Shown: positions 646 through 49,512, numbered from the stretch's first letter. The stretch is DNA of 64,000 bases from Desulfosoma sp. (GCA_037481835.1 JBBFKW010000006.1:1-64000); one strand, 5' to 3'. The notes: generated by a model not told the origin, from the sequence alone. Numbers and translations are program-made.

Positions 646-1377
646 ATGCTCTACCGCGTCCGCCGAAAAACCCAGTCGTGGTACGGTGAATCCATTGGGA
701 TTTTGATCCTCAAAGCCTCCTACCCTTGCATTCCGGGAAACGTGGGCAATGCCACCACCTTTCCCTTTCCCGTGCGCTACCAGGCGGTGGAAGGCGCCAC
801 CATCGACCGGCTGCTGAACCAACAAGACCCTTCCCTTGCCGGCCCCTTCATCGAAGCAGCCAAGCGCCTCAGAGACCGTGGCGTCCGGGCCGTCACTGGG
901 GCCTGCGGCTTCATGGCCCTCTTCCAGAAGGAGGTGGCCGCCGCCCTGGATATCCCCGTCTTTCTGTCCAGTCTCCTTCAGATCCCCTTCATCTATCAGG
1001 TGACCGGAAGGCCCGTGGGCATCATCACCGCCAACGCATCCCGGCTCACAAGAAAGCACTTCCAAGCCTGCCATGTTCCGCCCGAGATCCCCCTGGCGAT
1101 TGCGGGCATGGAAAACAAACAGGAATTCAGGGAGGCCATCCTTGAGGAGAAAGGAACCCTGGATTCCGAAAAGATTGAACGGGAAGTGGTGGAGGTGGCC
1201 GAAGATCTGGTTTCCAAAAATCCCGATGTGGGGGCCATCCTTCTCGAATGCAGCGACCTGCCCCCCTATGCCCATGCCGTGCAGGCAGCCACCGATCGCC
1301 CCGTCTTCGATTTCGTCACCATGATTACCTATGTGCATCAGGCGCTGATACGGACACCCTATCACGGCTATATGTAA
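646..1377 (+). CDS. Asp/Glu/hydantoin racemase superfamily protein
   Basis: IPGNVGNATTFPFPV motif and two catalytic-type Cys motifs (GACGFM, LECSDL); 243 aa. Confidence 0.8.
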   Translation: MLYRVRRKTQSWYGESIGILILKASYPCIPGNVGNATTFPFPVRYQAVEGATIDRLLNQQDPSLAGPFIEAAKRLRDRGVRAVTGACGFMALFQKEVAAALDIPVFLSSLLQIPFIYQVTGRPVGIITANASRLTRKHFQACHVPPEIPLAIAGMENKQEFREAILEEKGTLDSEKIEREVVEVAEDLVSKNPDVGAILLECSDLPPYAHAVQAATDRPVFDFVTMITYVHQALIRTPYHGYM

Positions 1378-1405
1378 GGCGCGGACAGCTCACGGAGACA
1401 CCCTC

Positions 1406-2281
1406 ATGTTTTTCAACGTACTTGCCTTCGGGATCATGGTTGGGGCTATTTACACCCTGATAACCATAGGGTACAGCATGGTCTACGGAATACTCAGACT
1501 GATGAATTTCGCCCACGGCGACGTTTATATCTTTGGAACCCTGGTGGCGTGGAGTCTGCTGTCTGGCTATGGCTGGCATCCCCTGCCGGCCCTGCTCATC
1601 GCCGTTCTCAGCGGAGGGATCCTCGCTTCCGTCGTAGAATTCGTGGCCTACCGCCGGCTCCGGGCCTCCCAACACCGTATGATCTCCATGATCACCGCCC
1701 TGGGGGCGGCTTACATCATCCAGAACGCCTCTGAGCTCAAGTGGGGAAACCAGGTCCTTTCTTTCCCCTCCCTTTTCCCGCCTTACACGTTTTCCATCGG
1801 CCACATGACCCTGTCGTTGACCAACTTCATCACATTGCTTCTGGCTCTGGGAGTGATTGCGGGTTTTCACGCGTTTTTGAAACACCACAAAATGGGCAAA
1901 GCCATCCTCTGTGCCTCTGAAGACCTGAGCACTTCGGCCTTGATGGGAATACCCGTCAATCGAACCATCTCGATCGTCTATTTCCTCGGGGGCGCCTTGG
2001 GTGTCATTGGAGGCATCCTCTATTCGGCCTCGTACAACGTCATTGGCATCAGCATGGGCTTTCGAGGGACCATTGTCGCTTTTACGGCCGCGGTGATCGG
2101 TGGCATCGGAAGCTTTAGTGGGGCTTTTTTGGGGTCCATGATCCTGGGCGTCGCCGAGAACTTTGTTGGAGTCTATGTCTCAAGCAGCTTCAGAGATCCC
2201 ATCATTTTCCTTTTTCTCATACTCATCCTCCTGGTGAAGCCCACGGGCATCATGGGAGAGATAGAAATCAAGAAGGTGTGA
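1406..2281 (+). CDS. livH: Branched-chain amino acid-type ABC transporter permease (LivH family)
   Basis: GYSMVYGILRLMNFAHG and AAVIGGIGS motifs; multiple TM helices. Confidence 0.9.
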   Translation: MFFNVLAFGIMVGAIYTLITIGYSMVYGILRLMNFAHGDVYIFGTLVAWSLLSGYGWHPLPALLIAVLSGGILASVVEFVAYRRLRASQHRMISMITALGAAYIIQNASELKWGNQVLSFPSLFPPYTFSIGHMTLSLTNFITLLLALGVIAGFHAFLKHHKMGKAILCASEDLSTSALMGIPVNRTISIVYFLGGALGVIGGILYSASYNVIGISMGFRGTIVAFTAAVIGGIGSFSGAFLGSMILGVAENFVGVYVSSSFRDPIIFLFLILILLVKPTGIMGEIEIKKV

Positions 2282-2291
2282 TGAGGGGGTT

Positions 2292-3296
2292 ATGGAACAG
2301 AGGCAAGTGTTGGTGGCAGAGCCCGTGGGTCAGTTTGCCGATGTTCGGCATAGGGACAAAGGAAGGGACACATTGACCCTTGCGAAATACGCCGCGACGA
2401 CGGCCGTGGCTGCAGCGCTCTTGCTATTCCCCATCATTGTAAAAGACCCCTACTTGGTAGGGCTCATGAATTTCATGATTCTTTTCGGCATCTGCTGTCT
2501 GGGCCTCAATCTCGTCCTGGGTTATACGGGCCTCCTTTCCCTGGGCCACGCCGCATTCTACGGAATCGGCGCTTACACCACCGCCATTCTCATGACACGC
2601 CATGGATTCGGTTTCCTGCCGTCTCTGGCCCTATCCGGAGGGCTCACCATGGCGGTGGCACTCTTCCTTGGAATCCCCATCCGCAAGGTTCGAGGCGATT
2701 ACTTCTGCCTCATCACCATCGCCTTTGGCGAGATTTTCCGACTGGTGGCCCTTGCTTGGATAGGCTTTACGGGCGGGGCCATGGGTATCGTGGGCATCCC
2801 GGTGCCCAAGGTCCTGGGATATCCTCTGCGAAATGAAACGGATTTTTACTATTTCGGATTGTTGTTGCTGCTCCTCACTTACCTCACACTCCACTTGCTG
2901 GTGCACTCCCGGTTCGGGCGAGCCCTCGTGGCCATCCGGGAAGACGAACTAGCCGCCCAATCCATGGGCATCAACACGCCCCTTTACATGGTTCTATCCT
3001 TCACCATCGGATCCTTCTACGCCGGGATCGCCGGGAGCCTGCTGGCGGTTTATCAGACCACCGTCACCCCATCCAACTTCCGGCTGGAAGAGTCCTGCCT
3101 CATGATCATCATGGTCATCGTGGGTGGCATGGGGCGGCTCTGGGCACCTCTCGTCGGGGTGCTCATCATGACCGTCGCCACCGAACTCTTCCGCCCCCTG
3201 GACCAGTACCGCATGATGATCATCGGATCCATCATGATTGCCGTTCTATTGTTCAGGCCTCAGGGACTTTTAGGAATCTCCTCCTTCGGGGACTAG
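2292..3296 (+). CDS. livM: ABC transporter permease (LivM family)
   Basis: GYTGLLSLGHAAFYGIGAY, RGDYFCLITIAFGE and AIREDELAA motifs. Confidence 0.9.
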   Translation: MEQRQVLVAEPVGQFADVRHRDKGRDTLTLAKYAATTAVAAALLLFPIIVKDPYLVGLMNFMILFGICCLGLNLVLGYTGLLSLGHAAFYGIGAYTTAILMTRHGFGFLPSLALSGGLTMAVALFLGIPIRKVRGDYFCLITIAFGEIFRLVALAWIGFTGGAMGIVGIPVPKVLGYPLRNETDFYYFGLLLLLLTYLTLHLLVHSRFGRALVAIREDELAAQSMGINTPLYMVLSFTIGSFYAGIAGSLLAVYQTTVTPSNFRLEESCLMIIMVIVGGMGRLWAPLVGVLIMTVATELFRPLDQYRMMIIGSIMIAVLLFRPQGLLGISSFGD

Positions 3297-3321
3297 ACGG
3301 CCGTTTGCGAGGTGTCCCTTC

Positions 3322-4095
3322 ATGGTGCTGCTCGAAACCAAAAACCTCAAGAAACGCTTCGGCGGCGTCTATGCCGTCAACGATGTGTCCCTTCAAATCA
3401 GGCGGGGTGAGATCCTCGGGATGATCGGGCCCAACGGATCGGGGAAATCCACCTTCATCAACGTGATCACGAGAATCTACAGTCCCGACTCCGGCACCAT
3501 CCTTTTCAAGGGGGAGCCCATCGAGGGGCTTCCGCCGTATCGGGTCACGGAAAGGGGCATCACCCGCACGTTCCAGAATCTGCGCGTCTTTTCCAACATC
3601 TCCGTTCTGGACAACATCCTCATCGGCCGCCACACCCGCATCCCCAACTCCCTTCTGGACGTCTATTGGCGGCCCTTCACGGCGCGAAGGCGCGAGCGGG
3701 AAGCCGCCGACAGGGCGATGGAAATCCTCGCCATGGTGAACCTGGAGCACCGCAAGGACGAGCTGGTCAAGAATCTTCCCTACGGGGAACAGCGCCTCAT
3801 CGAGATCTGCCGGGCCCTGGCATCCGATCCCGACCTCCTTTTCCTGGACGAGCCGTGCGCCGGCATGAACCCCGTGGAGATGGACACCCTGGCGGGGTTC
3901 ATAAGGCGCCTCCAAGGGGATGGCTATACGATCTTCATCATCGAACACAACATGCGGTTCATCATGTCCGTGGCCGAAAGAATCGTCGTGCTCAACGCCG
4001 GGAGCAAATTCAGGGAAGGAAAACCCATGGAGATTCAGGCGGATCCTGAAGTTCAAAGAATATACCTGGGAGAAGAGGATGCCGGCGTATGTTAG
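3322..4095 (+). CDS. livG: ABC transporter ATP-binding protein (LivG family)
   Basis: Walker A GPNGSGKS, RTFQNLR, LPYGEQR, LDEP and IEHNM motifs. Confidence 0.9.
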   Translation: MVLLETKNLKKRFGGVYAVNDVSLQIRRGEILGMIGPNGSGKSTFINVITRIYSPDSGTILFKGEPIEGLPPYRVTERGITRTFQNLRVFSNISVLDNILIGRHTRIPNSLLDVYWRPFTARRREREAADRAMEILAMVNLEHRKDELVKNLPYGEQRLIEICRALASDPDLLFLDEPCAGMNPVEMDTLAGFIRRLQGDGYTIFIIEHNMRFIMSVAERIVVLNAGSKFREGKPMEIQADPEVQRIYLGEEDAGVC

Positions 4096-4832
4096 AAGTG
4101 AGAGGGATTTCCTCGGGCTACGGGAAAATCAAGATCCTTCATGAGGTCTCTCTGACCATTCGGCCGGGAGAGATCGTTTCCGTCATCGGGGCCAACGGCG
4201 CCGGGAAGACCACGCTGCTCAAGACCCTATCGGGGCTGATCCGCAGCTCTCAGGGAGAGATTCTTTTCGAATCCCGAAACATCGCTCGTCTTTCCCCTGA
4301 GAAAATCGCGGCCTTGGGCATCGTCCATGTCCCCGAAGGGCGGCGCGTCTTCGCCAAGTCCACGATCCAGGTCAATCTGGAAATGGGTGCCTTCCTGCGC
4401 AAGGACAAGGACGGCGTCAAGCACGACATGGAAAGATGCTTTGAACTGTTTCCCTTGTTGGCCGAGCGAAAGAACCAACTTGCCGGCACCCTGAGCGGCG
4501 GAGAGCAACAGATGCTGGCCATCGCCAGGGGACTCATGGCCAAGCCCAAGATCCTTCTCCTCGACGAACCGTCCATGGGCCTGGCCCCTTTCCTTGTCAA
4601 CGAAATCCTCCGGGTCATCTCCCAGCTCAATCAGAATGGCATGGCCGTGCTGCTCGTGGAGCAGAACGTGAAGAAGGCCCTTTCCATGACCCAGAGGGCC
4701 TATGTGATGGAACTGGGCAGGATCTGCCTTGAGGGGCGCTCGTGCGAGCTGCTGCACTCGCCGAGGGTAAGGTCCAGTTATCTTGGAGAAAACGTCGAAC
4801 ACGAAGGAGGATCACATGGTGAGGAAGGTTAG
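4089..4832 (+). CDS. livF: ABC transporter ATP-binding protein (LivF family)
   Basis: GANGAGKT, VPEGRRVF, LSGGEQQMLA and LLDEPSMGL motifs. Confidence 0.9.
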   Translation: MLEVRGISSGYGKIKILHEVSLTIRPGEIVSVIGANGAGKTTLLKTLSGLIRSSQGEILFESRNIARLSPEKIAALGIVHVPEGRRVFAKSTIQVNLEMGAFLRKDKDGVKHDMERCFELFPLLAERKNQLAGTLSGGEQQMLAIARGLMAKPKILLLDEPSMGLAPFLVNEILRVISQLNQNGMAVLLVEQNVKKALSMTQRAYVMELGRICLEGRSCELLHSPRVRSSYLGENVEHEGGSHGEEG

Positions 4833-5976
4833 CTGGGGGGTTTTCGTGGGTGTTGTTCTCGTTCTGGGTCTGTCCGTATGGGGTTTTGCCAAGGACGGGG
4901 TGGATCCGGACCGCAAGGTCGTACAGATCGTGGGCTATGACGCCGCCAGCGGTAAATACGGCGATTACGGCCTTGGAAATAAGCGGGGGCAGGAAATCGC
5001 CGTGGACGAGATCAACGCGGCGGGAGGAATCCAGAAGGGGTCTCTGAGCGGCTATCACCTGAAACTGGAATTCTTCGACGATCGCGGCGATCCCAAGGAA
5101 TCGGCCAATATCGCCAAGAGGATCTCGGCCGGAGACTATCTGGTGGCCATCGGCCCCACCATCAGCTCCTGCGCCCTGGCGGCGACCCCCGTCTTCTATC
5201 GGAGCCGGGTGCCGAACATCATCACCTATTCCAACGCCAACACCATCACCGAACAGGGCTTCGACAACGTCATCCGACTCACCTACACCACCAAATCCAT
5301 CGCCAGGTACATCGCCGAACAGGTGAAGAATCAGTTCGGCAAGAATTCCGTGGCTATTATCAGCGAAAACCAGGACTACGGACAGCAGCTGGTAAAGTAT
5401 TTCAAGGAGGCCGCAGATAGCTTGGGAATCTCCGTCACCTCGGAGAGTGTGATCACTCCGGGGCAGGACTTGGATTTCAAATCCGTTCTCCTGAAGGCCA
5501 TGGAGAAGGATCCCCAATTCCTGGTTCTCTTCGTGACCTACAACGAAGGCGGCATGATCGTGAGGCAGACCAGGCAGCTGGGCTGGAAAGTTCCCATATA
5601 CGTACCCGACGCCATGACGGAACCCAAGTTTTATGAACTGGCGGGGGATGTGTCCAACGTCTACATCCAGCTTTCCCCCACCATCGACATGTCCCGTCCG
5701 GCGGCCAAGATCCTGAAAGAAGAGTGGGAAAAGAGATACGGCGGCGTTCCTCCCCTTTCCGCCATCTATGGCTACGACGCCGTCAAAGTGGCGGTCAAGG
5801 TGATGGAGGCGGGGGCAACGGACCGGGAAAGTTTCATCAAACTCATGCGAACGGTGAAGCACGAAGGGGTGGCAAACCCACTCTATACATTCGATGACAA
5901 GGGAGACAGCCAGGCCCCGCCCTTCGTCACCATGCCCTGCAACGAATACTACGAGAAGAACATCAAGGGGAAATAA
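4816..5976 (+). CDS. ABC transporter substrate-binding protein (LivJ/K family)
   Basis: AAGGAGG RBS before ATG 4816; signal peptide; AVDEINAAGG, DDRGDP and YGYDAV motifs. Confidence 0.85.
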   Translation: MVRKVSWGVFVGVVLVLGLSVWGFAKDGVDPDRKVVQIVGYDAASGKYGDYGLGNKRGQEIAVDEINAAGGIQKGSLSGYHLKLEFFDDRGDPKESANIAKRISAGDYLVAIGPTISSCALAATPVFYRSRVPNIITYSNANTITEQGFDNVIRLTYTTKSIARYIAEQVKNQFGKNSVAIISENQDYGQQLVKYFKEAADSLGISVTSESVITPGQDLDFKSVLLKAMEKDPQFLVLFVTYNEGGMIVRQTRQLGWKVPIYVPDAMTEPKFYELAGDVSNVYIQLSPTIDMSRPAAKILKEEWEKRYGGVPPLSAIYGYDAVKVAVKVMEAGATDRESFIKLMRTVKHEGVANPLYTFDDKGDSQAPPFVTMPCNEYYEKNIKGK

Positions 5977-6041
5977 TGGACAAAGCCAGCCTTGACCTAG
6001 CGGGGCACCCCCCTGAGGTCAAGGTTTTTGGAGATGGACTG

Positions 6042-7334
6042 ATGATTGCCGATGATCGCATTCGAAATCTCGGGCTGTGGGCCGTTACGGCACCGCCGCC
6101 ACCTGCTCTCGCTGCGCTGGATGGCCATCTGACATGTGATGTGCTGGTCATCGGCGGAGGATACACGGGGGTATCCGCCGCCCTTCATTTGGCTCAGGCC
6201 GGCGTCAAGGTGGTTCTCCTTGAGGCCAACTACCTGGGATACGGCGGGTCCGGTAGGAATGTGGGCTTGGTCAACGCCGGGCTGTGGGTTCTGCCCGACG
6301 ACGTTGTCAGGGAGCTCGGCCCGGACTACGGCGAGCGATTGAATCACGTTCTGGGATCCTCGCCGGATCTGGTGTTCGCCTTGATCGACAAACACGGCAT
6401 CTCGTGCGAGGCTGTTCGCAACGGGACACTCCATTGTGCCCATTCGCCTTCGGGATATCGATACCTCCAGGAAAGGCAACGACAGTGGGGACGGCGCGGG
6501 GCCCCGGTGAGGCTGCTCGACGCCGAAACGGCGGCGGAAAAGATCGGATCCCGGGCCTATTACGGGGCCCTGTGGGATCTGCGGGCGGGCACCGTCCAGC
6601 CCCTGGCCTACCTCCACGGGCTCGCCCATGCGGCCGTCAGGAGCGGTGCGCTCCTCTATGTCCACTCGCCGGCACTTGCCGTTGAGAAGCATCACGGCGG
6701 CTGGCGGGTCAAGACCCCCGGCGGCAGCGTCAGTGCCAGCGGCATCATTCTGGCGACCAACGCCTATACCGACGGCATCCTGCCCGAACTCAAACGAACG
6801 TTCATCCGGTTCCACTATTTTCAGTTCGCCACCAGACCCCTCCCGGAAGCCGTTCGAAAAACCGTCCTCCCCGACCGGCACGGCACCTGGGACACCAACA
6901 CGGTCCTGTCCTCCATGAGGCTGGACGGTTCGGGAAGACTTATTGCCGGGAGCGTAGGGACCGTTGAAGATTTCGGCTATCCACTCCACAAGAGCTGGGC
7001 CAGGCGAATGATTCGAAAGATATTCCCTCAGCTTGGGAATGTGGATTTGGAGTATTCATGGTACGGTGTGATCGCCATGACTCGAAATCACATGCCGCGT
7101 TTCTATGAGCTCGGACCGGGTTTCATCACCGTCATGAGCTACAACGGGCGCGGCATAGGCCCCGGGACCATGTTCGGAAAACTCTTGGCCCAATACTTTC
7201 TCCATGGCGGAAAGGATGTGATCCCCCTGCCGGTATCGAGGCCTCAGTCCTTGCTGACCCGCAAGGCATGGGAAATTTTTTATGAAGCCGGGGCCAGGTT
7301 GTATCACGCTGTCCAAAAAGTCGTGCTTCCATGA
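6042..7334 (+). CDS. FAD-dependent oxidoreductase, DAO family, L-pipecolate oxidase/dehydrogenase (AmaA)-like
   Basis: GGGYTG FAD motif, [13 protein letters not shown] and [10 protein letters not shown]; adjacent to an ALDH7-type gene as in Pseudomonas amaAB. Start at 6042 has a GGAG RBS; 5976 is an alternative. Confidence 0.75.
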
Positions 7335-7359
7335 AATGACAGCCGGGAAGGATTCCTTT

Positions 7360-8901
7360 ATGGATATGAAGGATGTTTTGGATCGACTTGGCATAGGATC
7401 GGAAAATTTCGGATGGAGCACCGGACGTGATTGGGGAAAGACCCCATCCGAAGGAATCCTCGAAAACACTTCGCCGGTGGACGGCACAGTGATCGCCAGG
7501 GTTTATCGCGCGTCCGTGGAAGAGTACCGCACGGTCATGGACCGGGCGCTGGAGGCGTTCGCCTCCTGGCGTCGTGTTCCCGCGCCCAAGCGGGGCGAGA
7601 TCATTCGCAAGATCGGGCTCAAATTGCGCCACTACAAGGATCTCCTGGGCCGTCTGGTGAGCTACGAAAACGGCAAGATTCTCCAGGAAGGCTGGGGAGA
7701 GGTCCAGGAGATGATCGACATGGCCGATTTCGCTGTGGGTCTGTCGCGTCAACTCTACGGCCTGACCATGCATTCCGAAAGGCCTTCTCACCGCATGTAC
7801 GAACAGTACCACCCTCTCGGCCCGGTGGGCGTCATCACCGCCTTTAATTTCCCGGTGGCGGTCTGGTCCTGGAATGCCTTCATCGCCGCTGTGTGCGGCG
7901 ATGTGGTCGTGTGGAAACCGGCCTCATCGGTCCCCCTTACGGCCATCGCCGTGCAAAACATCGTCTCGGAAGTTCTCAAGGAAGAGAACCTGCCCGAAGG
8001 CATCTTCAATCTGGTCATCGGCAGCGGCTCCACCATCGGGGAAGCCATGCTCACAGACACGCGGCTTCCGCTGATCTCCATCACCGGATCCACGGAAGTG
8101 GGCCGTCACGCCGCCACGCGGATTTCCCAGCGCCTGGGCCGATACATCCTGGAGTTGGGGGGGAATAACGCCATCATCCTCACGGAAAACGCCGATCTCA
8201 AATTGGCGGTTCCGGCCATCGTTTTCGGGGCTGTGGGCACGGCAGGCCAGCGGTGCACCACCACCAGGCGCCTCATTATTCACAGGAACATCTTCGACAG
8301 GGTGAAGGAAGCGCTCCTCAAGGCCTACGGGAGCCTTCGAATCGGCAACCCCCTCGACCCCGCCACTCATGTGGGCCCGCTCATCGATAGGGCGGCTGTG
8401 GACGTTTACGAGAAGGCCTTGCAACGCATAAGGCAGGAAGGAGGCGAAATCCTTTACGGCGGGAAGGTTCTCAAAGGGCCCGGTTATGAATCAGGTTGCT
8501 ACGTCGAACCCACACTGGTCATGGCTTCGCCCCAGATGCCCGTGGTCCATGAAGAAACCTTCGCCCCCATCCTGTATCTCCTGACCTACTCCGGGGACAT
8601 AGATGAAGCCATTGAGATCCAAAACAGTGTGCCTCAAGGACTTTCTTCGGCCGTTTTCACAACCAATCTCAAAGAAGCGGAAGCTTTCCTGTCCCCCTGG
8701 GGGTCGGACTGCGGCATCGCCAATGTGAACATTGGAACCTCCGGAGCGGAAATAGGCGGAGCCTTCGGCGGAGAAAAGGATACGGGAGGCGGCCGGGAAG
8801 CGGGCTCCGACGCCTGGAAGGCCTATATGCGGCGCCAGACGGTCACCATCAACTTCGGCAATGAGCTGCCTCTGGCCCAGGGCATCCGCTTCGAAATCTA
8901 G
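7360..8901 (+). CDS. Aldehyde dehydrogenase family 7 (antiquitin / P6C / aminoadipate-semialdehyde dehydrogenase, AmaB-like)
   Basis: [26 protein letters not shown], and the ALDH7-type tail [20 protein letters not shown]...PLAQGIRF. Confidence 0.9.
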
Positions 8902-8987
8902 AGAGACTTCCCTGCAGCCGACACAAAGGTCGGTGGGCTCGGGCCGGCCCGGGCCCCCGATGGGTTTCCTTGGAGGTGCGATCACTT

Positions 8988-10106
8988 ATGGCCCTGTGTC
9001 TTATGGATGGAAATGAAGCCATTGCCCGAGCAGCTGTAGCGGCGGGCTGCCGATTTTTTGCAGGCTATCCCATTACACCGGCAACCACCATCTTCCACGA
9101 AATGCTCCGGCTGCTCCCGCCGCTCGGCGGCATTTGCCTGCAGGGCGAGGACGAAATTGCGTCCATGGGCTTCTGCATCGGCGCCGCCCTCTCGGGCCTC
9201 AGGGCCATGACCGCCACGTCGGGCCCTGGCATCAGCCTCTACAGCGAACAGATCTCCTTTGCCATCGGCAGTGAGATTCCCTTGGTCATCGTGGATGTAC
9301 AGCGCCTCGGCCCTTCTACGGGCTCGGCCACCAAGGGCGCCGATGGAGACGTGCAGTTCTTGCGATGGGGCAACTCCGGCGGCATCCCGGTGATCGTGTT
9401 GGCTCCCGTAGATGTGAAAGATTGCCTCACGCTGACGGTCCACGCCTTCGATCTGGCAGACCGCTTTCGATGCCCCGTCTTCATCGCCTCCAACAAAGAA
9501 GTGGGAATGACCCGCGAAACCCTAGACATGAGCCAATTTCAGTTTCCGGCTCAGACCACCAGAAAGACAGGAGATGAAAACTCGCCTTATTTGCCCTACG
9601 CCGCACCGGATGACGCTTCTGCCCCTCCTTTTCTGCCCTTTGGAAGCAGGCAATTGGTGCGGATCACCTCGTCCACCCATGGCGTGGACGGCTATATCAC
9701 AACGGACCCCATGGAGATCCAGCGTTTCCAAGAGCGACTGTGCGCCAAGATAGAAAACCATATTGATCAATTCAGCTTCTACGACTTCCACGAGACGCCG
9801 GGCGCCCAAACCCTTTTGATCACTTACGGCGTGACCGCCCGGGCGGCCCGAACGGCTGTCAAAATGGCCAGGGAAGCCGGAAAAGACGCATCGGTCCTGG
9901 TTTTGAAAACACTCTGGCCCGTGCCGGAAGCCGTCATTAGGCGGGCAGCCGGCCCGTGTTCGAAAGTGGTCGTGGCGGAGATGAACATGGGCCAGTACGT
10001 AAGGGAAATATCAAGGGTCTTGCCGGATCGGGATATCCGTTTCCTGGGCCGCATGAACGGAACCCTTCTCACTCCCTGGGAAATTCTGGAGGCGCTGAAG
10101 CAATGA
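8988..10106 (+). CDS. 2-oxoacid:ferredoxin oxidoreductase alpha subunit
   Basis: GNEAIA, YPITP, EDEIAS, TATSGPG and EMNMGQY motifs. Confidence 0.9.
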   Translation: MALCLMDGNEAIARAAVAAGCRFFAGYPITPATTIFHEMLRLLPPLGGICLQGEDEIASMGFCIGAALSGLRAMTATSGPGISLYSEQISFAIGSEIPLVIVDVQRLGPSTGSATKGADGDVQFLRWGNSGGIPVIVLAPVDVKDCLTLTVHAFDLADRFRCPVFIASNKEVGMTRETLDMSQFQFPAQTTRKTGDENSPYLPYAAPDDASAPPFLPFGSRQLVRITSSTHGVDGYITTDPMEIQRFQERLCAKIENHIDQFSFYDFHETPGAQTLLITYGVTARAARTAVKMAREAGKDASVLVLKTLWPVPEAVIRRAAGPCSKVVVAEMNMGQYVREISRVLPDRDIRFLGRMNGTLLTPWEILEALKQ

Positions 10107-11398
10107 ATGGGGACAGCCTTCTCAATGCAGCACGCCCACCGGTCTTCTGTCCGGGATGTTCCCACGAAAGGGTGGTGCACGCCCTGGATAAGACCCTGCG
10201 GCGCATGGGGATCAAGGGGGAACAAATTGTTCTTGTTTCCGACATCGGATGTTCCGGGTTGTTCGACACCTTTTTCAATACCCATGCCCTCCACGGCCTT
10301 CACGGCAGGGCCCTGACCTATGCCACGGGCATCAAAATGGCCCGTCCGGACCTCCATGTCATCGTCACCATGGGGGACGGCGGACTGGGCATCGGCGCGG
10401 CGCATGTGCTCAGTACATGCCGACGCAATATCGACCTCACTCTTCTCGTACTCAACAATTTCAACTACGGAATGACCGGCGGCCAATGTTCGTCCACCAC
10501 ACCCATGGAGGCCCGGGTATCGTCCGGCTTTCTCAACCGTTTGGAGAAGCCGCTGGACGTCTGCCAAATGTTTGGAACAGCCGGTGCCGCCTGGGTTGAC
10601 CGCACGAGCGTCTATGACGAGGACCTTGTGGACAAGATGGAAGAAGCCGTGAGGTTTACGGGTTTTTCCATTTTGGACATTTGGGGCCTTTGTCCAGGCC
10701 GTTATGTGAAAACTAACAAGGTCACTCCATCGACCCTGCGGGAAGAAATGAAACAGCTGCCTTCTTGGAAGCACTTTTCCCAACTGAACCGGCGGCCTGA
10801 ATACGCAAGCCATTACCGCGAAGAGGCCTCACGCTGTTCCCAGCCCCAGGAACCCTTGAGAGTGGAACGGATCTGCGATCCTCCGGAAATGAAACGTCAG
10901 GAAATTGTTCTCCTCGGCGCCGCCGGACAGCGCATTCTCACGGCAGGGGAACTTCTTTGCCTCGCCGGGATGACGGCGGGCATGCATGCCACCCAAAAGA
11001 ACGACTATCCCATTACGGTCATGAGAGGCCATTCCATCACGGAAGTCATCCTCAATCCGGAACCTGTTGATTTTACAGGAATCGAATCGCCCGATGTGGT
11101 CATCGCCCTGGCCGAAGACGGGGTGAAACGGTGGCGGTCGGCCTTCTCGCGCCTTTCCGACCGATGTCTCGTTCTGAGAACGAAAGGGCTCGCCATCCCT
11201 GAGACCGCAGCTACCCCAGTGGATCTTGATTTCCGGGAACGAAAGTTGAAATCGGGAGACTGGGCGCTGGCCTCCCTGGCTTGGCTCGCCTCGAAGGGTG
11301 TGGTGATTACCCGTCCCATGTTGCACAAGGCCCTCGAGCTGAGATTTTCAGGAAGCGCTTTGGAAGACGCCATGAAGATCCTGGATGCGTGGGAATAA
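10103..11398 (+). CDS. 2-oxoacid:ferredoxin oxidoreductase fused beta (TPP-binding) and gamma subunit
   Basis: FCPGC, DIGCSG, HGR, GDG...NN and YGMTGGQCS, followed by gamma-like GAAGQRILTAG...MRGHS; ATGA overlap with the alpha gene. Confidence 0.85.
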   Translation: MNGDSLLNAARPPVFCPGCSHERVVHALDKTLRRMGIKGEQIVLVSDIGCSGLFDTFFNTHALHGLHGRALTYATGIKMARPDLHVIVTMGDGGLGIGAAHVLSTCRRNIDLTLLVLNNFNYGMTGGQCSSTTPMEARVSSGFLNRLEKPLDVCQMFGTAGAAWVDRTSVYDEDLVDKMEEAVRFTGFSILDIWGLCPGRYVKTNKVTPSTLREEMKQLPSWKHFSQLNRRPEYASHYREEASRCSQPQEPLRVERICDPPEMKRQEIVLLGAAGQRILTAGELLCLAGMTAGMHATQKNDYPITVMRGHSITEVILNPEPVDFTGIESPDVVIALAEDGVKRWRSAFSRLSDRCLVLRTKGLAIPETAATPVDLDFRERKLKSGDWALASLAWLASKGVVITRPMLHKALELRFSGSALEDAMKILDAWE

Positions 11399-11422
11399 CT
11401 TTTCAGGAAGCGGGAGGAGGCC

Positions 11423-12385
11423 ATGCGGATCCGGTTGTTGACCGGGGAAGATCTGGAAAAGGTCCTGCCCATGGATCTGGCGGTTCGGGCCATGGCGGAA
11501 GCTTTCTCGCAGTTTTCCGCCGGGGAGGCCGACGTCCCTTTGCGAACCCGGCTCGAGACCCCCAAGGGCGAAACCCTGTTCATGCCCGCCTACCTCAGGC
11601 GGACCGGGGACCTTGCCGCAAAGATTGTCTCCGTCTTTCCCGGCAACATGGCCCTCGGGCTTCCCACCGTTCCCGGCATGGTCATAAGCCTGGACGCACA
11701 CACGGGGTTGCCATTGGCCATCATGGACGGGCATGCCCTCACCGCTCTTCGCACGGGAGCTGCGGGAGGCCTGGCGGCTCAGCTGCTGTCCCGGGAAGAG
11801 GCGGCCCATGCGGTGGTCTTTGGAGCCGGCACCCAAGGGTGGGCCCAAATCCGAGGCGTCCTCGCCGTTCGTAAGATCCGGCGGGTCTGGATTGTGGATC
11901 CCGCGGAGGAAAACCGAAAAAGGCTGGCCGATCGACTCAGGTGCTTGGGAAAAGGGCTCGAAGTGCTCGAAACGGACAGGGGAGACGATGCCGTGGAAAG
12001 GGCGGATATCATTATCACAGCTACCCCATCTCCGACGCCGGTCTTTGACGGCACCAGGGTTCGGCCGGGGACGCACATCAACGCCATCGGCTCCTACCGT
12101 CCGGATATGTGCGAACTGGACGCACACATCGTCCGAAAAGCCAAAGTCTTTGTCGATTCCCGAAGGGCCTGTATGGCCGAGGCGGGAGACATCATCCAAT
12201 CGGGGGCTAAGATTCTGGCCGAAATCGGAGAGGTCATCAACGGCGCCAAACCCGGTAGAACATCGCCTGATGAGATCACGGTCTTCAAGACGGTGGGGAT
12301 CGCCGCCCAGGACGCCGCAGCCGCCTCGGCGGCACTGAAACGGGCGGAAGAAAAAAACCTCGGAACCTTGATCTCCCTCGGCTGA
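11423..12385 (+). CDS. Ornithine cyclodeaminase / mu-crystallin family protein
   Basis: [37 protein letters not shown] and [10 protein letters not shown] motifs. Confidence 0.9.
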
Positions 12386-12872
12386 TTTCCGTGGGTTTCC
12401 AAAGGGCCGGCTTGAATGGCCGTAGTCTCTTTACCCCCATGCTTCGATCACGGTCCGTGCACGGCGGATGCCAAATCCCATAGGACTTCCCCCCATGGGG
12501 GCCAGCCTGGAGCCGTCGGGGAGGCCTTTTCATGGGCCATCCGCCGTGCCCACGTACCTATAAAAGCTCTGAAACCGATCGATGATACCGGCTCTCTCTT
12601 TTCGGGAGACCGCTTCCCCCCTGCGACCCTGCCCAGGCGCCTTGCCCCGGCCCTTGGAGCTCGCCAATCTTCAAGCCGGCCGGCGTCTCTTTTCCGCCCT
12701 TTTGAAAAGGCTTGGTGCTCCGGGAAAAACAGCCCCCATGAAAGCCGCATGGGCCGGCTTCGGCCCGGCCCCGGTCTCGAGGGGGACTGCCTGGGGAGTG
12801 CCGCCTTTGGAGTCCGTCCGTCCATTTTGTTGGGTTTCTAAACAGCGCCGCCCCAGCGCGCTTGCGACTTTT

Positions 12873-12965
12873 GTTGGGGTTGGCTTCGATCACCTCCAAC
12901 CTACATCTCGCCGACCCACGTCCTTGAGCAAATTCGTAGGTTGGGGTGAGCGCAGCGAACCCCAA
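12873..12965. repeat. REP doublet (two inverted GTAG-family palindromic repeats)
   Basis: Degenerate minus copy at 12873-12904 and plus copy GTAGGTTGGGGTGAGCGCAGCGAACCCCAA at 12936-12965. Confidence 0.8.
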
Positions 12966-13072
12966 GGTGCATCAGGTGCCGGCGAGACAACGAACCATGA
13001 AAGTCCGGCCTTCTGGGACTTCGAGCCGCAGCGGCGCATTTTTCACGTTTTTGTTGAACAACGGAATTCTTG

Positions 13073-13099
13073 TGGTATGCTAGAAAAGTATCCATACCA
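13073..13099 (+). promoter_or_regulatory. Putative gntR promoter -10 and autoregulatory operator
   Basis: TGGTATG-N13-CATACCA inverted repeat overlapping an extended -10 (TGnTATGCT); TTGAAC at 13054. Confidence 0.4.
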
Positions 13100-13114
13100 A
13101 AGAGTGGAGAGATC

Positions 13115-13786
13115 ATGACCTCGAATGTCTATCAAATCATCAAGGAACGGATCCTGTTTCTCGAATACAAACCGCCCCAGATTCTCAACGAGAAGATGCT
13201 GGCTGAGGAGTTCGGAGTCAGCCGCACGCCGGTAAGAGAAGCCCTGAAACGGCTAGAGTTGGAGCAGCTGGTGCGGGTGCTTCCCAGGTCCGGCGCCATG
13301 GTGACGGAGATTGAATTCGAGAAAATGATGTATACTTATCAAGTGCGATTCAAGATTGAAGAGTTGGTCGGCGACCTGGCAGGGGAACATATGACCCCTG
13401 AACTGATCGGCGGTTTTGAGGAACTCAAAAAACAATGCTTGGAATTAATGGAAGTCAAGAATCGGCGAAAACTCGTTGATATTGATATGCGTTTCCGCAG
13501 CATGCTTTTTAAAGCGGCAAGAAACCCCATACTCCGTATGATTTCCGATTACCTGTATCATCTCACTCTGCGTCTTTGGTACATCACTCTCGATATCGGA
13601 AAATGGTCTGAAGAAGTGCAGGCCATGTACGATGAGATCGACACGACGCAGAAAATTTGCCGTGACGAAGGAGGCCGGGGACTGGGGGCGAAACGTCAGG
13701 AAATTCTCATGTGGCATTTGGAGCGCATAAGAGATAAGTATCTGGGAATGTCCGCACCATACACGGCATCAAGAGAGGGTTCGTAG
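13115..13786 (+). CDS. GntR family transcriptional regulator (FCD-type C-terminal domain)
   Basis: N-terminal wHTH LNEKMLAEEFGVSRTPVREAL; helical C-terminal domain. Confidence 0.9.
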   Translation: MTSNVYQIIKERILFLEYKPPQILNEKMLAEEFGVSRTPVREALKRLELEQLVRVLPRSGAMVTEIEFEKMMYTYQVRFKIEELVGDLAGEHMTPELIGGFEELKKQCLELMEVKNRRKLVDIDMRFRSMLFKAARNPILRMISDYLYHLTLRLWYITLDIGKWSEEVQAMYDEIDTTQKICRDEGGRGLGAKRQEILMWHLERIRDKYLGMSAPYTASREGS

Positions 13787-13901: not shown

Positions 13902-13977
13902 TGGCGGGCGACCCGGGGATCGAACCCGGGACCTTTGGTTCCGGAGACCAACGCTCTCTCCACTGAGCTAGTCGCCC
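13902..13977 (-). tRNA. tRNA-Arg (anticodon CCG)
   Basis: Reverse complement GGGCGACTAGCTCAGTGGAGAGAGCG TTGGT-CT-CCG-GA-ACCAA ...GGTTCGATCC...GTCGCCCGCCA; 76 nt cloverleaf with encoded CCA. Confidence 0.97.
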
Positions 13978-35013: not shown

Positions 35014-36210
35014 ATGGCGCCGGTGCCCATCAAGGACAACATTTTCAACGTGGGCGTAGTGGATTGGGACATCCGAGATTTCCACGGATATTCCACCTAC
35101 AAGGGCACGACCTACAACGCCTACTTGGTCGTGGACGAAAAAATCACCCTGTTCGATACCGTCAAAAAACCCTTCAAGAACGATCTTCTTCATAACATCG
35201 GGAAAATCACCGACCCGCAAAAGATCGACTACCTGGTTGTTAACCATGTGGAAATGGACCATTCGGGCTCCGTCCCCGAAATCATCGAAGCGGTGAAGCC
35301 GGAAAAAGTTTTCTGTTCCCCCATGGGCAAGAAAGCCCTGGAGGCCCACTTCGGTTCCCACCAGTGGCCTCTGGAAGTGGTGGAAAACGGCCGGGAAATC
35401 TCCTTGGGGCGGCGCACGGTTCGCTTTATGGAAACCCGCATGCTCCATTGGCCCGACAGCATGTTCAGTTACATCCCGCAAGACAAGCTCCTCATTTCCA
35501 GCGACGCTTTCGGCCAGCACTGGGCGACGAGTGAAACGTTCGACGACGAGGTGGCATTGTCGGAATTGCTGCGCCACGCCGCCAAGTATTACGCCAACAT
35601 CCTGTTGCCCTACTCGCCTTTGGTCCGAAAGCTCCTGGGGGCCGTCGCCGAGATGAAGCTGGAAATCGACATGATCGCCCCCGATCACGGGCTGATTTGG
35701 CGAAGCCGGCCGGATGCGATCCTCAAGGCCTACGAGGATTGGAGTCTTCAGAAAGCCGAGCGCAAGGCCCTGATCATTTACGACACCATGTGGCATTCCA
35801 CGGAAAAGATGGCCCATGCCGTCGCCTCGGGCCTGGCCGACGAAGGCGTCTCCCACAAGCTGCTGAACCTCAAACGCAACCACCGCAGCGACATCCTCAC
35901 CGAAGTGCTGGACAGCAAGGCCCTCATTTTCGGGTCTCCCACCCTGAACAACGGCATGCTCCCTACCATGGCGGACATCCTGTGCTACCTCAAGGGGCTC
36001 AAGCCCACGGGGAAAATCGGCTCCGCCTTCGGCTCTTACGGTTGGAGCGGCGAAGCGGTGAAGGACATCGTTCGGTGGATGGAAGAGATGAAGATCGAAA
36101 TCGTGGAGCCGCCCGTTCGGGTCCAATACGTTCCGAACCAGGATGTCCTGGCCCAGTGCGCGGAACTGGGGCGCAGGGTGGGCCGGGCCGTCAAGGAACG
36201 CGTGGCCTGA
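35014..36210 (+). CDS. fprA: Flavodiiron protein (FprA / rubredoxin:oxygen oxidoreductase type)
   Basis: GTTYNAYL, HVEMDH, HWPD, DAFGQH and PDHG; flavodoxin domain with FGSYGWSG. Confidence 0.93.
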   Translation: MAPVPIKDNIFNVGVVDWDIRDFHGYSTYKGTTYNAYLVVDEKITLFDTVKKPFKNDLLHNIGKITDPQKIDYLVVNHVEMDHSGSVPEIIEAVKPEKVFCSPMGKKALEAHFGSHQWPLEVVENGREISLGRRTVRFMETRMLHWPDSMFSYIPQDKLLISSDAFGQHWATSETFDDEVALSELLRHAAKYYANILLPYSPLVRKLLGAVAEMKLEIDMIAPDHGLIWRSRPDAILKAYEDWSLQKAERKALIIYDTMWHSTEKMAHAVASGLADEGVSHKLLNLKRNHRSDILTEVLDSKALIFGSPTLNNGMLPTMADILCYLKGLKPTGKIGSAFGSYGWSGEAVKDIVRWMEEMKIEIVEPPVRVQYVPNQDVLAQCAELGRRVGRAVKERVA

Positions 36211-36262
36211 GGGTTTGGGCCCGGTGCGGGGACGGTCCCGGCCGGGCGCACAGGAGGACACG

Positions 36263-37579
36263 ATGGATGCTTTGCTTTTGTCACGTTTGCAGTTTGCCGC
36301 CGCCACGTATTTTCATTTCTTATTCGTCCCGCTCACCTTGGGCCTTTCCATCCTCATCGCCCTGATGGAAACGCGCTTTGCGCGTTCAGGCGATGAAGAG
36401 TACCGGAACATGGCCCGGTTTTGGGGCAAGATTTTTCTCATCAACTTCGCCATCGGCGTGGTGACGGGGATCACCCTGGAGTTCCAGTTCGGCACCAACT
36501 GGTCCCGCTATTCCCGATACGTGGGGGATGTCTTCGGGTCCCTTCTCGCCATTGAAGCCACGGCGGCCTTCTTTCTTGAATCGACTTTCATCGCCGTCTG
36601 GGCCCTCACCTGGAATCGCTTGTCGGCCAAAGCCCACGCCGTGACCATCTGGCTCGTGGCCTTCGCCTCAAATCTTTCCGCCGTATGGATCCTCACCGCC
36701 AATGCCTGGATGCAGCATCCCGTGGGCTACACCCTCCGCGGGGGGCGAGCGGAACTTACGGACTTTTTCGCCGTCGTGACCCAGCCTTTCGCCTGGCACA
36801 CCATCGTCCACACCCTGAGCGGCGCCTACATTCTGTCCGGGATGTTCGTCATGGGCGTGAGCGCCTATCATCTGCTGCGGCGGCAGCATGTGAGTTTCTT
36901 CAGCCGGTCGTTCCGCATGGGGACAGTGATGGCCTTGATCTTTTCCGTGGTGGCCGTCGTCCACGGCCACGTGCAGGGATCCGAAGTGGCCAAGGCGCAG
37001 CCCACCAAGCTTGCGGCCATGGAATCCCTTTGGGAGACGAAACAGAAGGCCCCGCAGCACTTGTTGGTCATCCCCGATGAAAAAGGCGAACGGAATCGGC
37101 TGGAACTGGGGGCCATGCCCGGCGTGCTGAGCCTGCTCGCCTACCATGACGTGAACGCCACGGTCCGAGGGCTCAAAGACTTTCCCAAGGAAGACCGTCC
37201 CCCGGTGACCATCACCTTTCTCGCCTTCCGCATCATGATCGGCCTCGGGTTTCTCTTTCCCGTGCTTGCTCTGTGGGCTTTCTGGAAGCGCAACCGCCTT
37301 CTGGAAAGCCCCCGCCTGCTCAAGGTCATGCTTTACGCCATTCCCCTTCCCTATATCGCATCCCAGGCCGGGTGGACCGTGACCGAAGTGGGACGGCAGC
37401 CCTGGGTCGTCTACGGCGTCATGCGGACCGCCGACGCCGTATCGCCCATCGCTCCCTCCCAGGTGGCGGTGTCGCTGACGGCCTTCGTGGTGGTGTATTC
37501 CCTGCTCGGCCTCGCCGCCTTTTATCTCATGGCGCGTCATGCCAAACGGGGCCCGGCGGTCGAAGTCGCCGCATCTTAG
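36263..37579 (+). CDS. cydA: Cytochrome bd quinol oxidase subunit I
   Basis: LSRLQFA, HFLFVP, EFQFGTNW, QPTKLAAME and GRQPW motifs. Confidence 0.96.
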   Translation: MDALLLSRLQFAAATYFHFLFVPLTLGLSILIALMETRFARSGDEEYRNMARFWGKIFLINFAIGVVTGITLEFQFGTNWSRYSRYVGDVFGSLLAIEATAAFFLESTFIAVWALTWNRLSAKAHAVTIWLVAFASNLSAVWILTANAWMQHPVGYTLRGGRAELTDFFAVVTQPFAWHTIVHTLSGAYILSGMFVMGVSAYHLLRRQHVSFFSRSFRMGTVMALIFSVVAVVHGHVQGSEVAKAQPTKLAAMESLWETKQKAPQHLLVIPDEKGERNRLELGAMPGVLSLLAYHDVNATVRGLKDFPKEDRPPVTITFLAFRIMIGLGFLFPVLALWAFWKRNRLLESPRLLKVMLYAIPLPYIASQAGWTVTEVGRQPWVVYGVMRTADAVSPIAPSQVAVSLTAFVVVYSLLGLAAFYLMARHAKRGPAVEVAAS

Positions 37580-37606
37580 ACAGGGTTCAAGACAGGAGGA
37601 AGGACC

Positions 37607-49251: not shown

Positions 49252-49512
49252 GGTCGTGCTAGGCGGGGAGCTAGCGGTTCCCTGTACCCGAAATCCGCTC
49301 AGCGGGGCTGAATCCCCTTTCGAGGGACCGGTTGGGGCGACCCGATCGGAACTGCACCGTCGGTCGGACACCTCGCAACAGACGGATGTGAACCCCGTCA
49401 GGTCCGGAAGGAAGCAGCGGTAAGCATTGCGGTCTGTGTCGAGGTTCATTCTGACTGGACGCTGCAGGGAAGTCGGGCCGGCCCTCATCGACTCGACAAA
49501 GGGTGCACGACC
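49252..49512 (+). ncRNA. ffs: Signal recognition particle RNA, large (Alu-domain) bacterial type
   Basis: S-domain CCCGTCAGGTCCGGAAGGAAGCAGCGG; 5' Alu-like GTGCTAGGCGGGGAG...CCCTGTACC..AATCCGCT; terminal pairing GGTCGTGC/GCACGACC followed by a T-run. Confidence 0.92.

Follow-up and report, generated by a model that had tools for sequence, protein, structure and literature searches.

A candidate oxygen-independent operon for pipecolate and lysine catabolism with a putative 2-oxoadipate:ferredoxin oxidoreductase in Desulfosoma sp.

Gene content of the operon

The window analysed here, that is, the whole 64,000-nucleotide stretch of Desulfosoma sp. (GCA_037481835.1, JBBFKW010000006.1:1-64000), contains near its start eleven genes (646-12385) that form a candidate operon for the anaerobic catabolism of pipecolate or lysine and include a two-subunit 2-oxoacid:ferredoxin oxidoreductase (OFOR) (Table 1). 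An open reading frame (ORF) scan gave intergenic spacings between a 17-base overlap and a 68-base gap, and the Pfam and NCBIfam families confirm the run of eleven co-directional, tightly spaced genes followed by a GntR gene described in the initial annotation. That description needs correcting. The operon does not end in the OFOR, as its last gene (11423-12385) belongs to the OCD/mu-crystallin family (OCD, ornithine cyclodeaminase), and the GntR gene, present as stated, is set off by ~730 non-coding bases carrying a dispersed repeat. Because the first base of the window is a contig end and only 645 bases are visible upstream of position 646, anything farther upstream of the operon is unseen. 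The arrangement exceeds chance, since its parts recur in other genomes.

The aldehyde dehydrogenase (ALDH) passes the curated equivalog model for L-piperideine-6-carboxylate (P6C) dehydrogenase (NF050084, AmaB/ALDH7) with 792.8 bits against a cut-off of 730, in agreement with its first assignment to the ALDH7/AmaB type. Models for 2-oxoglutarate-semialdehyde (GucD, 317.5 bits; cut-off 770), pyrroline-5-carboxylate (P5C, 247 bits; cut-off 648) and succinate-semialdehyde dehydrogenases all score ≤318 bits, far below their cut-offs. Among the steps considered below, oxidation of P6C to 2-aminoadipate by this enzyme is the most strongly assigned.

The flavoenzyme encoded immediately upstream aligns with the NCBIfam model pipecolate_AmaA (NF050086, an exception-type model) over positions 2-420 of 425 with 490.1 bits, the next family reaching 109.5. 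PuuB, used as a control (Escherichia coli K-12 record), shares 33% identity with the window protein and reaches 212.7 bits on the AmaA model; the window protein itself scores ≤46 bits on the soxB, solA and ThiO models. Homologues with 55-69% identity occur in Desulfobacterota records as proteins of 426-430 aa under generic names (‘FAD-binding oxidoreductase’); because of their length, translation probably starts at 6042 rather than 5976. On the AmaA model, homologues from Desulfobacterota reach 463-478 bits. Given 490 bits against 213 for PuuB and ≤110 for other models, the enzyme is placed by sequence in a sister group of AmaA, outside both the PuuB/sarcosine-oxidase type and AmaA as filed. 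The earlier AmaA-like assignment thus keeps its side of the family, away from PuuB and sarcosine oxidases, and falls short of the 600-bit cut-off for AmaA itself.

Domains I, II, VI (TPP-binding) and III of the OFOR superfamily were all found across the two OFOR subunits. The alpha subunit scores 397.5 bits on PRK08659, under the cut-off of 411, and retains a YPITPAT motif that is kept in 65 homologues, while C16, C19, C50, C106, C197 and a GDGG...NN motif of the beta-gamma subunit are invariant in 71 sequences. We take GDG...NN as the thiamine-diphosphate motif and C16, C19, C50 and C197 as the four cluster cysteines of beta. The closest structures in the PDB are 1yd7 (269 bits) and 8ys5 (247 bits) for alpha, within a range of 110-269 across solved relatives, and 8ys5_C (150 bits, beta part only; range 110-150) for beta. 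Both subunits fall below the models for 2-oxoglutarate:ferredoxin oxidoreductase (NF007206, alpha, 310.4 bits, cut-off 579; NF007207, beta, 170.4 bits, cut-off 364), and no curated family model exists for a 2-oxoadipate:ferredoxin oxidoreductase. Solved two-subunit enzymes, namely StOFOR of Sulfolobus tokodaii (5b46/5b48), the 2-oxoglutarate:ferredoxin oxidoreductase OGOR of Magnetococcus (6n2n) and 8ys5, share with the window OFOR the POR_N, PFOR_II, TPP-binding beta and POR gamma domains, the YPITP and GDG...NN motifs and the conserved cysteines. As in these enzymes, no delta or ferredoxin subunit accompanies the window OFOR. The gamma domain lies at the N-terminus of alpha in the solved enzymes (6n2n_A, 573 aa; 5b46_A, 628 aa) but at the C-terminus of beta in the window OFOR, and the gene context would indicate 2-oxoadipate as the substrate of the latter. 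In Table 1 of PMC13768988, activity on 2-oxoadipate is given only for two broad-range Aeropyrum pernix enzymes, at 37-52% relative activity.

The racemase-fold protein returned zero PDB matches by sequence search, and a fold search was therefore used. With an AF2 model of medium confidence (pLDDT 74.5), Foldseek retrieved arylmalonate/malonate decarboxylase, hydantoin racemase 2eq5 (TM 0.74) and aspartate racemase 1jfl, at TM values of 0.6-0.74. C28, C87 and C202 are invariant among 7 homologues, C87 and C202 being the putative catalytic cysteines. A Pfam score above cut-off, the fold match and two conserved cysteines place the protein in the Asp/Glu/hydantoin racemase superfamily. The importer has a Liv-type architecture, with all components below the Liv equivalog cut-offs (LivH 174.7 bits, cut-off 379; LivM 208.8, 366; LivG 249.1, 362; LivF 266.4, 441; binding protein 108.4, 477), and this likeness does not imply a substrate. 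Homologues of the binding protein with 66-68% identity occupy the equivalent slot at the related loci L004, L016, L018, L021, L030 and L038.

For the OCD protein, the best PDB matches are a pyrroline-2-carboxylate (Pyr2C) reductase (6t3e, 223 bits), an archaeal alanine dehydrogenase (194 bits) and the ketimine reductase CRYM (160 bits), against 94-98 bits for lysine and ornithine cyclodeaminases (lysine cyclodeaminase, 98). All subfamily scores lie below their cut-offs (PRK08618 300.6 bits, cut-off 417; PRK06141 229.1, 322; PRK08291 211.1, 408; LhpI 154.1, 400). Were the protein a lysine cyclodeaminase, the operon alone could carry L-lysine to 2-aminoadipate with one flavoenzyme, and a lysine racemase would add D-lysine; were it a piperideine-2-carboxylate (P2C) reductase, as similarity favours, an alpha-deaminating enzyme would be missing. 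The regulator has both GntR and FCD domains above cut-off and belongs to the FCD subfamily; homologues with 48-55% identity stand beside related clusters at L017, L018, L030 and L047.

Table 1. Features at the operon locus and directly downstream, with the family matches on which the names rest
Feature	Coordinates	Strand	Evidence and remarks
Asp/Glu racemase superfamily gene	646-1377	+	PF01177 41.9 bits (cut-off 31); NCBIfam PRK07475 317 (cut-off 231)
ABC permease, LivH-like	1406-2281	+	PF02653 (BPD_transp_2) 116 bits
ABC permease, LivM-like	2292-3296	+	PF02653 (BPD_transp_2) 164.9 bits
ABC ATPase, LivG-like	3322-4095	+	PF00005 and BCA_ABC_TP_C
ABC ATPase, LivF-like	4089-4832	+	PF00005
Periplasmic solute-binding protein, Peripla_BP_6	4816-5976	+	PF13458 167 bits; signal-like N-terminal segment
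AmaA-like FAD enzyme (DAO family), proposed L-pipecolate dehydrogenase	5976-7334	+	PF01266 217 bits; likely start 6042
ALDH7-type L-piperideine-6-carboxylate (2-aminoadipate semialdehyde) dehydrogenase	7336-8901	+	NF050084
OFOR alpha, without N-terminal gamma domain	8970-10106	+	POR_N 168.6 bits, PFOR_II 61.6 bits
OFOR beta with fused C-terminal gamma (POR) domain	10103-11398	+	TPP_enzyme_C 89.3 bits, POR 34.8 bits
OCD/mu-crystallin family enzyme, candidate imine reductase or lysine cyclodeaminase	11423-12385	+	PF02423 244.2 bits (cut-off 24)
Non-coding spacer with dispersed REP-like repeat	12386-13115	.	ORFs without Pfam match
GntR/FCD transcription regulator, probable operon regulator	13116-13786	+	PF00392 65.8 bits, PF07729 39 bits, both above cut-off
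tRNA-Arg(CCG)	13902-13977	-	directly past regulator

The GC content of the operon is 58.4%, against 60.4% for the genome. The REP-like 17-mer of the spacer, GTAGGTTGGGGTGAGCG, occurs at 184 sites of the 3.6-Mb genome (≤2 mismatches, both strands), often in facing pairs. The remaining genes of the window are unrelated to the operon and include glnE, glyQ, glutamate-synthase-like genes, efflux systems, a sensor kinase and a molybdopterin oxidoreductase, and the cytochrome bd oxidase subunits I and II (36143-38680) and the large signal recognition particle RNA (49254-49510) are ordinary features unconnected to the operon.

Genomic context of related OFORs

With each species represented by a single genome, at least 574 relatives of the beta-gamma subunit were detected, and the best 80 loci (50-63% identity), nearly all from Desulfobacterota metagenome-assembled genomes or isolates, were analysed. 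Genera that appear in the records of these OFOR relatives and of the flavoenzyme homologues, such as Desulfococcus, Desulfatirhabdium, Desulforhopalus and Desulfosediminicola, are candidate carriers of the module. Throughout, L-numbers denote OFOR-related and other loci, G-numbers genomes (the host being G000) and C-numbers host contigs. An alpha gene lies directly upstream of beta-gamma in 72 of the 80 loci (tblastn), the others being mostly interrupted by contig ends. Neighbours were counted within 10 kb by identity thresholds, and tblastn coordinates were used for genes obscured by shadow ORFs on the opposite strand of GC-rich DNA (e.g. L081, L003). A single-linkage cluster of acyl-CoA dehydrogenases (‘c3’) was discarded as mixed, its median member (L076) being best described as 3-sulfinopropanoyl-CoA desulfinase-like; the non-decarboxylating glutaryl-CoA dehydrogenase (GDH) of the Desulfococcus type was therefore recounted at ≥60% identity to the L006 enzyme. 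That enzyme scores 701 bits against PDB 3mpi, the Desulfococcus non-decarboxylating GDH, and 778 on NF045552 (cut-off 470).

At least one of the tallied neighbours is present in 29 of the 80 loci. These comprise the glutaconyl-CoA decarboxylase subunit GcdA (12/80), an upstream ALDH7 (10/80), GDH (9/80), a second DAO-family flavoenzyme, here called c9 (9/80), a racemase-like gene (7/80), an aldehyde:ferredoxin oxidoreductase (AOR; 6/80), the beta subunit of electron-transfer flavoprotein (ETF; 5/80) and the window-type flavoenzyme (1/80, L017). Where at least 5 kb is available downstream, GDH or GcdA occurs in 11 of 50 loci. A representative GcdA scores 767 bits against 3gf3/1pix, and all four OFOR-linked ALDHs examined (L007, L011, L021, L067) pass the P6C model with 786-793 bits. 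By our estimate, two single-copy genes would lie less than 10 kb apart by chance in well below 1% of genomes this large, so the linkages are taken as real.

At L007, ALDH7, the OFOR alpha and beta-gamma genes, a class-I aminotransferase, GDH (788.6 bits) and GcdA follow one another on one strand; by predicted function, the genes cover the whole path between P6C and crotonyl-CoA in the sequence of its reactions. The cluster at L018 has 16 same-strand genes, beginning with GntR, racemase, Liv components, binding protein, c9, OFOR, ETF beta/alpha and OCD and ending in a distal part with an acyl-CoA dehydrogenase (434.7 bits), GcdA, a class-III aminotransferase and AOR. In L011, L064, L067 and L068, ALDH7 and OFOR come directly after a class-III aminotransferase. 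Taken together, the ALDH7, aminotransferase, GDH and GcdA neighbours point to 2-oxoadipate as the probable OFOR substrate and glutaryl-CoA as its product, which gives comparative support to the initial proposal that the OFOR acts on 2-oxoadipate. A quick tree built by maximum likelihood from 72 beta-gamma proteins spreads the ALDH7, GDH and GcdA contexts over all deep clades and groups the window protein with L003 (ALDH7, OCD), L011 and L017, a grouping that is not strongly supported (SH-aLRT 89-91).

At L001:2591-8603 (also L007:352-1404), a HypD-like glycyl-radical enzyme (746 bits; hydroxyproline dehydratase cut-off 1100) is encoded with its activase ahead of the genes for AOR, OFOR and a class-I aminotransferase; the enzyme may be a dehydratase that acts on a hydroxylated derivative of pipecolate or lysine and feeds the same route.

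Module exchange and the host genome

The AmaA-like gene is rare: in a sample of 401 genomes from the phylum it was found in two, the host and G264. It is found with ALDH7 and both OFOR genes in three genomes and two gene orders: in the window, at L017 (GntR, AmaA-like, ALDH7, OFOR alpha, OFOR beta-gamma) and in G264 (OFOR alpha, OFOR beta-gamma, AmaA-like, ALDH7), the last between unrelated flanks (an MscS channel and a formiminotransferase). The cluster conservation in anaerobes sought at the outset is thus seen as a module recurring in L017 and G264 and as parts in other Desulfobacterota loci.

Loci with the racemase-importer module of the window share it at 62-70% identity and differ in the slot between binding protein and OFOR. 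This slot holds AmaA-like plus ALDH7 in the window, c9 plus ALDH7 in L016 and L021, c9 plus AOR in L038, and c9 alone in L018 and L030, where AOR stands at the distal cluster end. ETF beta/alpha follow the OFOR in the c9 versions, joined by ETF:quinone oxidoreductase in L021 and L038, and c9 itself gives weak matches to models of the sarcosine-oxidase, ThiO and SolA type. Two flavoenzymes and two aldehyde oxidisers swap within one slot, which by our reading suits one pair of steps, from amine through cyclic imine/aldehyde to acid. The exchange fits an aldehyde- or imine-producing step that passes its electrons to ETF, and ETF is the likely acceptor for c9. At L021:7057-8598 (ALDH7) and L038:6940-8592 (tungsten-type AOR) the two enzymes occupy the equivalent slot of otherwise collinear clusters, and the swap suggests a ferredoxin-linked alternative for the oxidation of 2-aminoadipate semialdehyde. 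We read the window operon as a mosaic in which two modules, racemase-importer and AmaA-ALDH7-OFOR, are combined with an OCD gene of the kind seen at L003.

The host genome is 99.4% complete. It encodes dsrA (577 bits, cut-off 393), with which the description of the organism as a likely sulfate reducer fits, and no HglS domain was found in it. Beside dsrA and several OFORs, the host also carries the E1 component of a 2-oxoglutarate dehydrogenase. At C2:222000-232000 (L081) lie an IclR regulator, a CaiB-type CoA-transferase that scores highest on the succinate-glutarate model (478 bits, below the cut-off of 750), the beta subunit of a Na+-translocating decarboxylase (490 bits, cut-off 191), a GDH_Des-type dehydrogenase (488 bits, cut-off 470; 404 bits against 3mpi), an MmdA-like carboxyltransferase in place of GcdA (674 bits, under the cut-off of 999) and a TAXI-TRAP binding protein. 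By gene content this cluster is likely a glutarate/glutaryl-CoA utilization module; the view that the host cannot use glutaryl-CoA, raised because GcdA is missing, was dropped once the module was found.

A GabT-type aminotransferase and an AOR are kept as a pair, in the host on a contig other than that of the operon (C16:68833-71939) and in L018 (17151-20357), L020 and L030 at the distal end of the OFOR cluster. A second host OFOR (alpha and beta-gamma; C13:10005-12414, L089) is 60% and 51% identical to the window copy and is divergently oriented from a polar amino-acid ABC transporter. The OFORs of genus and family relatives are orthologues of this C13 copy (in G238, 77% identity to C13 versus 54% to the window copy). 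ALDH7 was found in none of the eight genus and family relatives, and the window operon likewise was not found there, which marks the operon as accessory. That it belongs to the core metabolism of the lineage was rejected on three grounds, namely the absence of ALDH7 from all eight relatives, the AmaA-like count of 2/401 and the match of the relatives' OFORs to the C13 copy. The tRNA-Arg past the regulator, together with the operon's absence from these relatives, may mark an insertion site.

Proposed route, alternatives and significance

Gene identities and their recurrent linkage are observed, and from them we infer substrates, electron acceptor and direction of flow. Comparative sequence evidence makes it probable, if by no means secure, that the locus is an accessory O2-independent operon carrying pipecolate and/or lysine to glutaryl-CoA via 2-aminoadipate. 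The Liv-type ABC system would import the substrate. Judging by its family, the AmaA-like enzyme would convert L-pipecolate to P6C and deliver the electrons to a carrier and not to O2, a mode expected because the host is a dsrA-carrying anaerobe. ALDH7 would oxidise P6C to L-2-aminoadipate, an unlinked aminotransferase would yield 2-oxoadipate, and the OFOR, to judge from its context, would convert 2-oxoadipate and CoA to glutaryl-CoA, CO2 and reduced ferredoxin. The C2 module, with its non-decarboxylating GDH and Na+-pumping decarboxylase, would then take glutaryl-CoA to crotonyl-CoA and build a sodium gradient. The racemase-fold and OCD enzymes may bring in other forms (the D-isomer, lysine or P2C), and the GntR/FCD protein would regulate the operon. 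The Asp/Glu-racemase fold and the tripartite ATP-independent periplasmic (TRAP) transporter that stands as an alternative in L020 and L047 also leave room for a racemase of 2-aminoadipate or of pipecolate.

Several observations weigh against this route. The flavoenzyme stays below the AmaA cut-off (490.1 versus 600 bits), and no ETF or other acceptor gene is linked to the AmaA-type versions of the cluster. The top models for OFOR alpha and beta are generic or of the 2-oxoglutarate type, all under their cut-offs, and the nearest solved OFOR structures are 2-oxoglutarate or broad-range enzymes. Family scans found no aminotransferase in the operon or in the rest of the 64-kb window, which also lacks ETF genes, and the aminotransferase candidates in the host are unlinked and confined to a GabT-type (C16:68833-70119) and a class-I enzyme (C8:75034-76203). 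The OCD protein is nearer to imine reductases than to lysine cyclodeaminases. As there is a single flavoenzyme, an entry from D-lysine through P2C to pipecolate is incomplete. No GcdA-type carboxyltransferase was found in the host (best 23% identity). A full-length 2-oxoglutarate dehydrogenase E1 is encoded at C15:112030-114711 (1030 bits, cut-off 770), and 2-oxoglutarate dehydrogenase complexes can accept 2-oxoadipate, so the OFOR is not the sole conceivable enzyme for its removal. Among the best 80 loci, 51 lack a lysine- or glutaryl-type neighbour.

A tally over 41 relatives, which are kin and not independent, so that the counts carry no statistics, adds to these points: ALDH7 occurs in 12 and overlaps with the OFOR only in the window's genome, leaving 13 genomes with the OFOR and no ALDH7 and 11 with ALDH7 and no OFOR. 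With so sparse an overlap, the OFOR family is not tied to ALDH7 everywhere. A full-length beta-gamma OFOR is present in 14 of the 41, of which 10 also encode a GDH_Des enzyme above cut-off, and in an eleventh (G403) the OFOR and GDH_Des genes are adjacent. The tally shows that this OFOR family is more closely tied to glutaryl-CoA metabolism than to ALDH7.

One alternative, which we regard as unlikely, is that 2-aminoadipate, or some other amino acid of acidic or D-type, is catabolised directly. The racemase would then interconvert D- and L-forms, the flavoenzyme would yield a 2-oxoacid for the OFOR, which might still be 2-oxoadipate, and ALDH7 would be a side entry from P6C. Enzymes of the Asp/Glu racemase superfamily act on acidic amino acids, and 2-aminoadipate is, by our reasoning, the next homologue of glutamate. 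The absence of a linked aminotransferase would cause no difficulty, as none is needed. L018, L020 and L030 carry racemase, transporter, c9 and, directly after these, OFOR, then ETF, acyl-CoA dehydrogenase and GcdA, and no ALDH7 in between; in L020 and L047 a TRAP transporter, of a kind that transports carboxylates, stands in place of Liv. However, the closest family to the window flavoenzyme is AmaA, whose reaction is the oxidation of the C6-N bond in the pipecolate ring, and ALDH7 or AOR lies exactly between flavoenzyme and OFOR in the window, L016, L017, L021 and L038, a placement that implies an aldehyde intermediate.

It is quite unlikely, in our view, that the OFOR is instead a 2-oxoglutarate:ferredoxin oxidoreductase serving a proline/hydroxyproline-type route or ferredoxin supply, unrelated to 2-oxoadipate. 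Enzymes for 2-oxoglutarate are the top-named NCBIfam match for beta and the second for alpha, the best solved relatives include 8ys5 (2-oxoglutarate synthase) and 6n2n, and the best solved relative of the OCD protein is a pyrroline-2-carboxylate reductase; the 51 of 80 loci without lysine-type context and the position of the second host OFOR beside a polar amino-acid ABC transporter agree with this view. The 2-oxoglutarate enzyme KGOR of Thauera aromatica, encoded with benzoyl-CoA genes, is a precedent. Yet the 2-oxoglutarate models are missed by a wide margin (310 vs 579 and 170 vs 364 bits), the ALDH fits the P6C model and not those for 2-oxoglutarate-semialdehyde (317 vs 770) or P5C (247 vs 648), and a succinyl-CoA product would leave GDH (9/80), GcdA (12/80) and the gene order at L007 unexplained. 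That the genes are mosaic neighbours without a single pathway, around a broad-range OFOR acting, for example, on branched-chain 2-oxoacids taken up by a Liv-type importer, is very unlikely. In favour of it, the importer is of the Liv/HAAT type, the racemase-Liv genes are otherwise seen with c9 and AmaA-ALDH7-OFOR stands alone in L017 and G264, and the operon was not found in any of the eight genus and family relatives, but against it the spacing is tight (17-base overlap to 68 bases), several genomes show the same modules joined to this OFOR, with two gene orders among them, and all Liv equivalog cut-offs are missed.

The proposed pipecolate-to-glutaryl-CoA route combines elements of known systems. 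In the D-lysine/pipecolate route of Pseudomonas putida, the L-pipecolate oxidase AmaA and the P6C dehydrogenase AmaB are followed by an aminotransferase and HglS. The window shares with it the AmaB/ALDH7 equivalog, an AmaA-like gene immediately upstream and the order of the chemistry (pipecolate, P6C, 2-aminoadipate, 2-oxoadipate). It differs in a flavoenzyme below the AmaA cut-off, in the lack of a detectable HglS, in a host with dsrA, in the proposed ferredoxin-linked OFOR that would keep the thioester, and in the additional racemase-fold gene, Liv importer and OCD gene. In Desulfococcus multivorans and fermenters, GDH (3mpi) and a Na+-pumping glutaconyl-CoA decarboxylase (3gf3/1pix) process glutaryl-CoA, and enzymes of these types follow the OFOR in related loci. 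The host counterpart lies on C2, outside the window operon (GDH_Des-type and Na+-decarboxylase beta), with an MmdA-like carboxyltransferase. In the Desulfococcus-type route, glutaryl-CoA is known to come from the degradation of aromatics or dicarboxylates and not from that of an amino acid.

The LAT-Pcd route of actinomycetes and Flavobacterium (lysine 6-aminotransferase, LAT, and P6C dehydrogenase, Pcd) has the second step in common, whereas the window has a flavoenzyme and not an aminotransferase before ALDH7; the class-III aminotransferases examined in OFOR loci score as GabT- or acetylornithine-type, so that a LAT role for them is unproven. Anaerobic lysine breakdown is known mainly as aminomutase fermentation, which in clostridia and fusobacteria proceeds via 3,6- and 3,5-diaminohexanoate. 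The clostridial fermentation is likewise anaerobic and ends at the crotonyl-/butyryl-CoA level, but its aminomutase chemistry is wholly different; no aminomutase-type families turned up in general family scans of the operon and window, which were not aimed at them.

To our knowledge, bacterial routes from 2-aminoadipate or 2-oxoadipate need either O2 (HglS) or a 2-oxoacid dehydrogenase complex. A full-text literature search, with most subscription journals outside its reach, found neither a dedicated 2-oxoadipate:ferredoxin oxidoreductase nor a pipecolate route that runs anaerobically, in line with the initial remark that no characterised example is known; it likewise turned up nothing usable on what determines 2-oxoglutarate specificity structurally. 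The AmaA/AmaB front half and the GDH/decarboxylase back half are known, then, and what would be new is an OFOR that replaces HglS or the dehydrogenase complex and joins the two. More tentatively, the alpha plus beta-gamma OFORs of Desulfobacterota may constitute a dedicated 2-oxoadipate:ferredoxin oxidoreductase family, unrecognized before, that forms the hub of a modular anaerobic network. Its front ends, all leading to 2-aminoadipate and 2-oxoadipate, could be a pipecolate dehydrogenase of the AmaA-like or sarcosine-oxidase-like kind, either ALDH7 or a tungsten-type AOR, aminotransferases of class III and possibly a HypD-like glycyl-radical dehydratase. Non-decarboxylating GDH and a Na+-pumping decarboxylase would then receive the carbon as glutaryl-CoA.

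If this hub exists, carbon from lysine would provide sulfate reducers and syntrophs with reduced ferredoxin, electrons on ETF and a sodium gradient. A ferredoxin-linked 2-oxoadipate step, if confirmed, would explain how strict anaerobes of sediments use pipecolate, lysine and 2-aminoadipate and would give them an extra source of low-potential electrons. The enzyme could also serve the O2-free making or consuming of glutaryl-CoA and 2-oxoadipate, and a function would be provided for an OFOR family that counts at least 574 members at one genome per species and for flavoenzymes that now carry generic labels.

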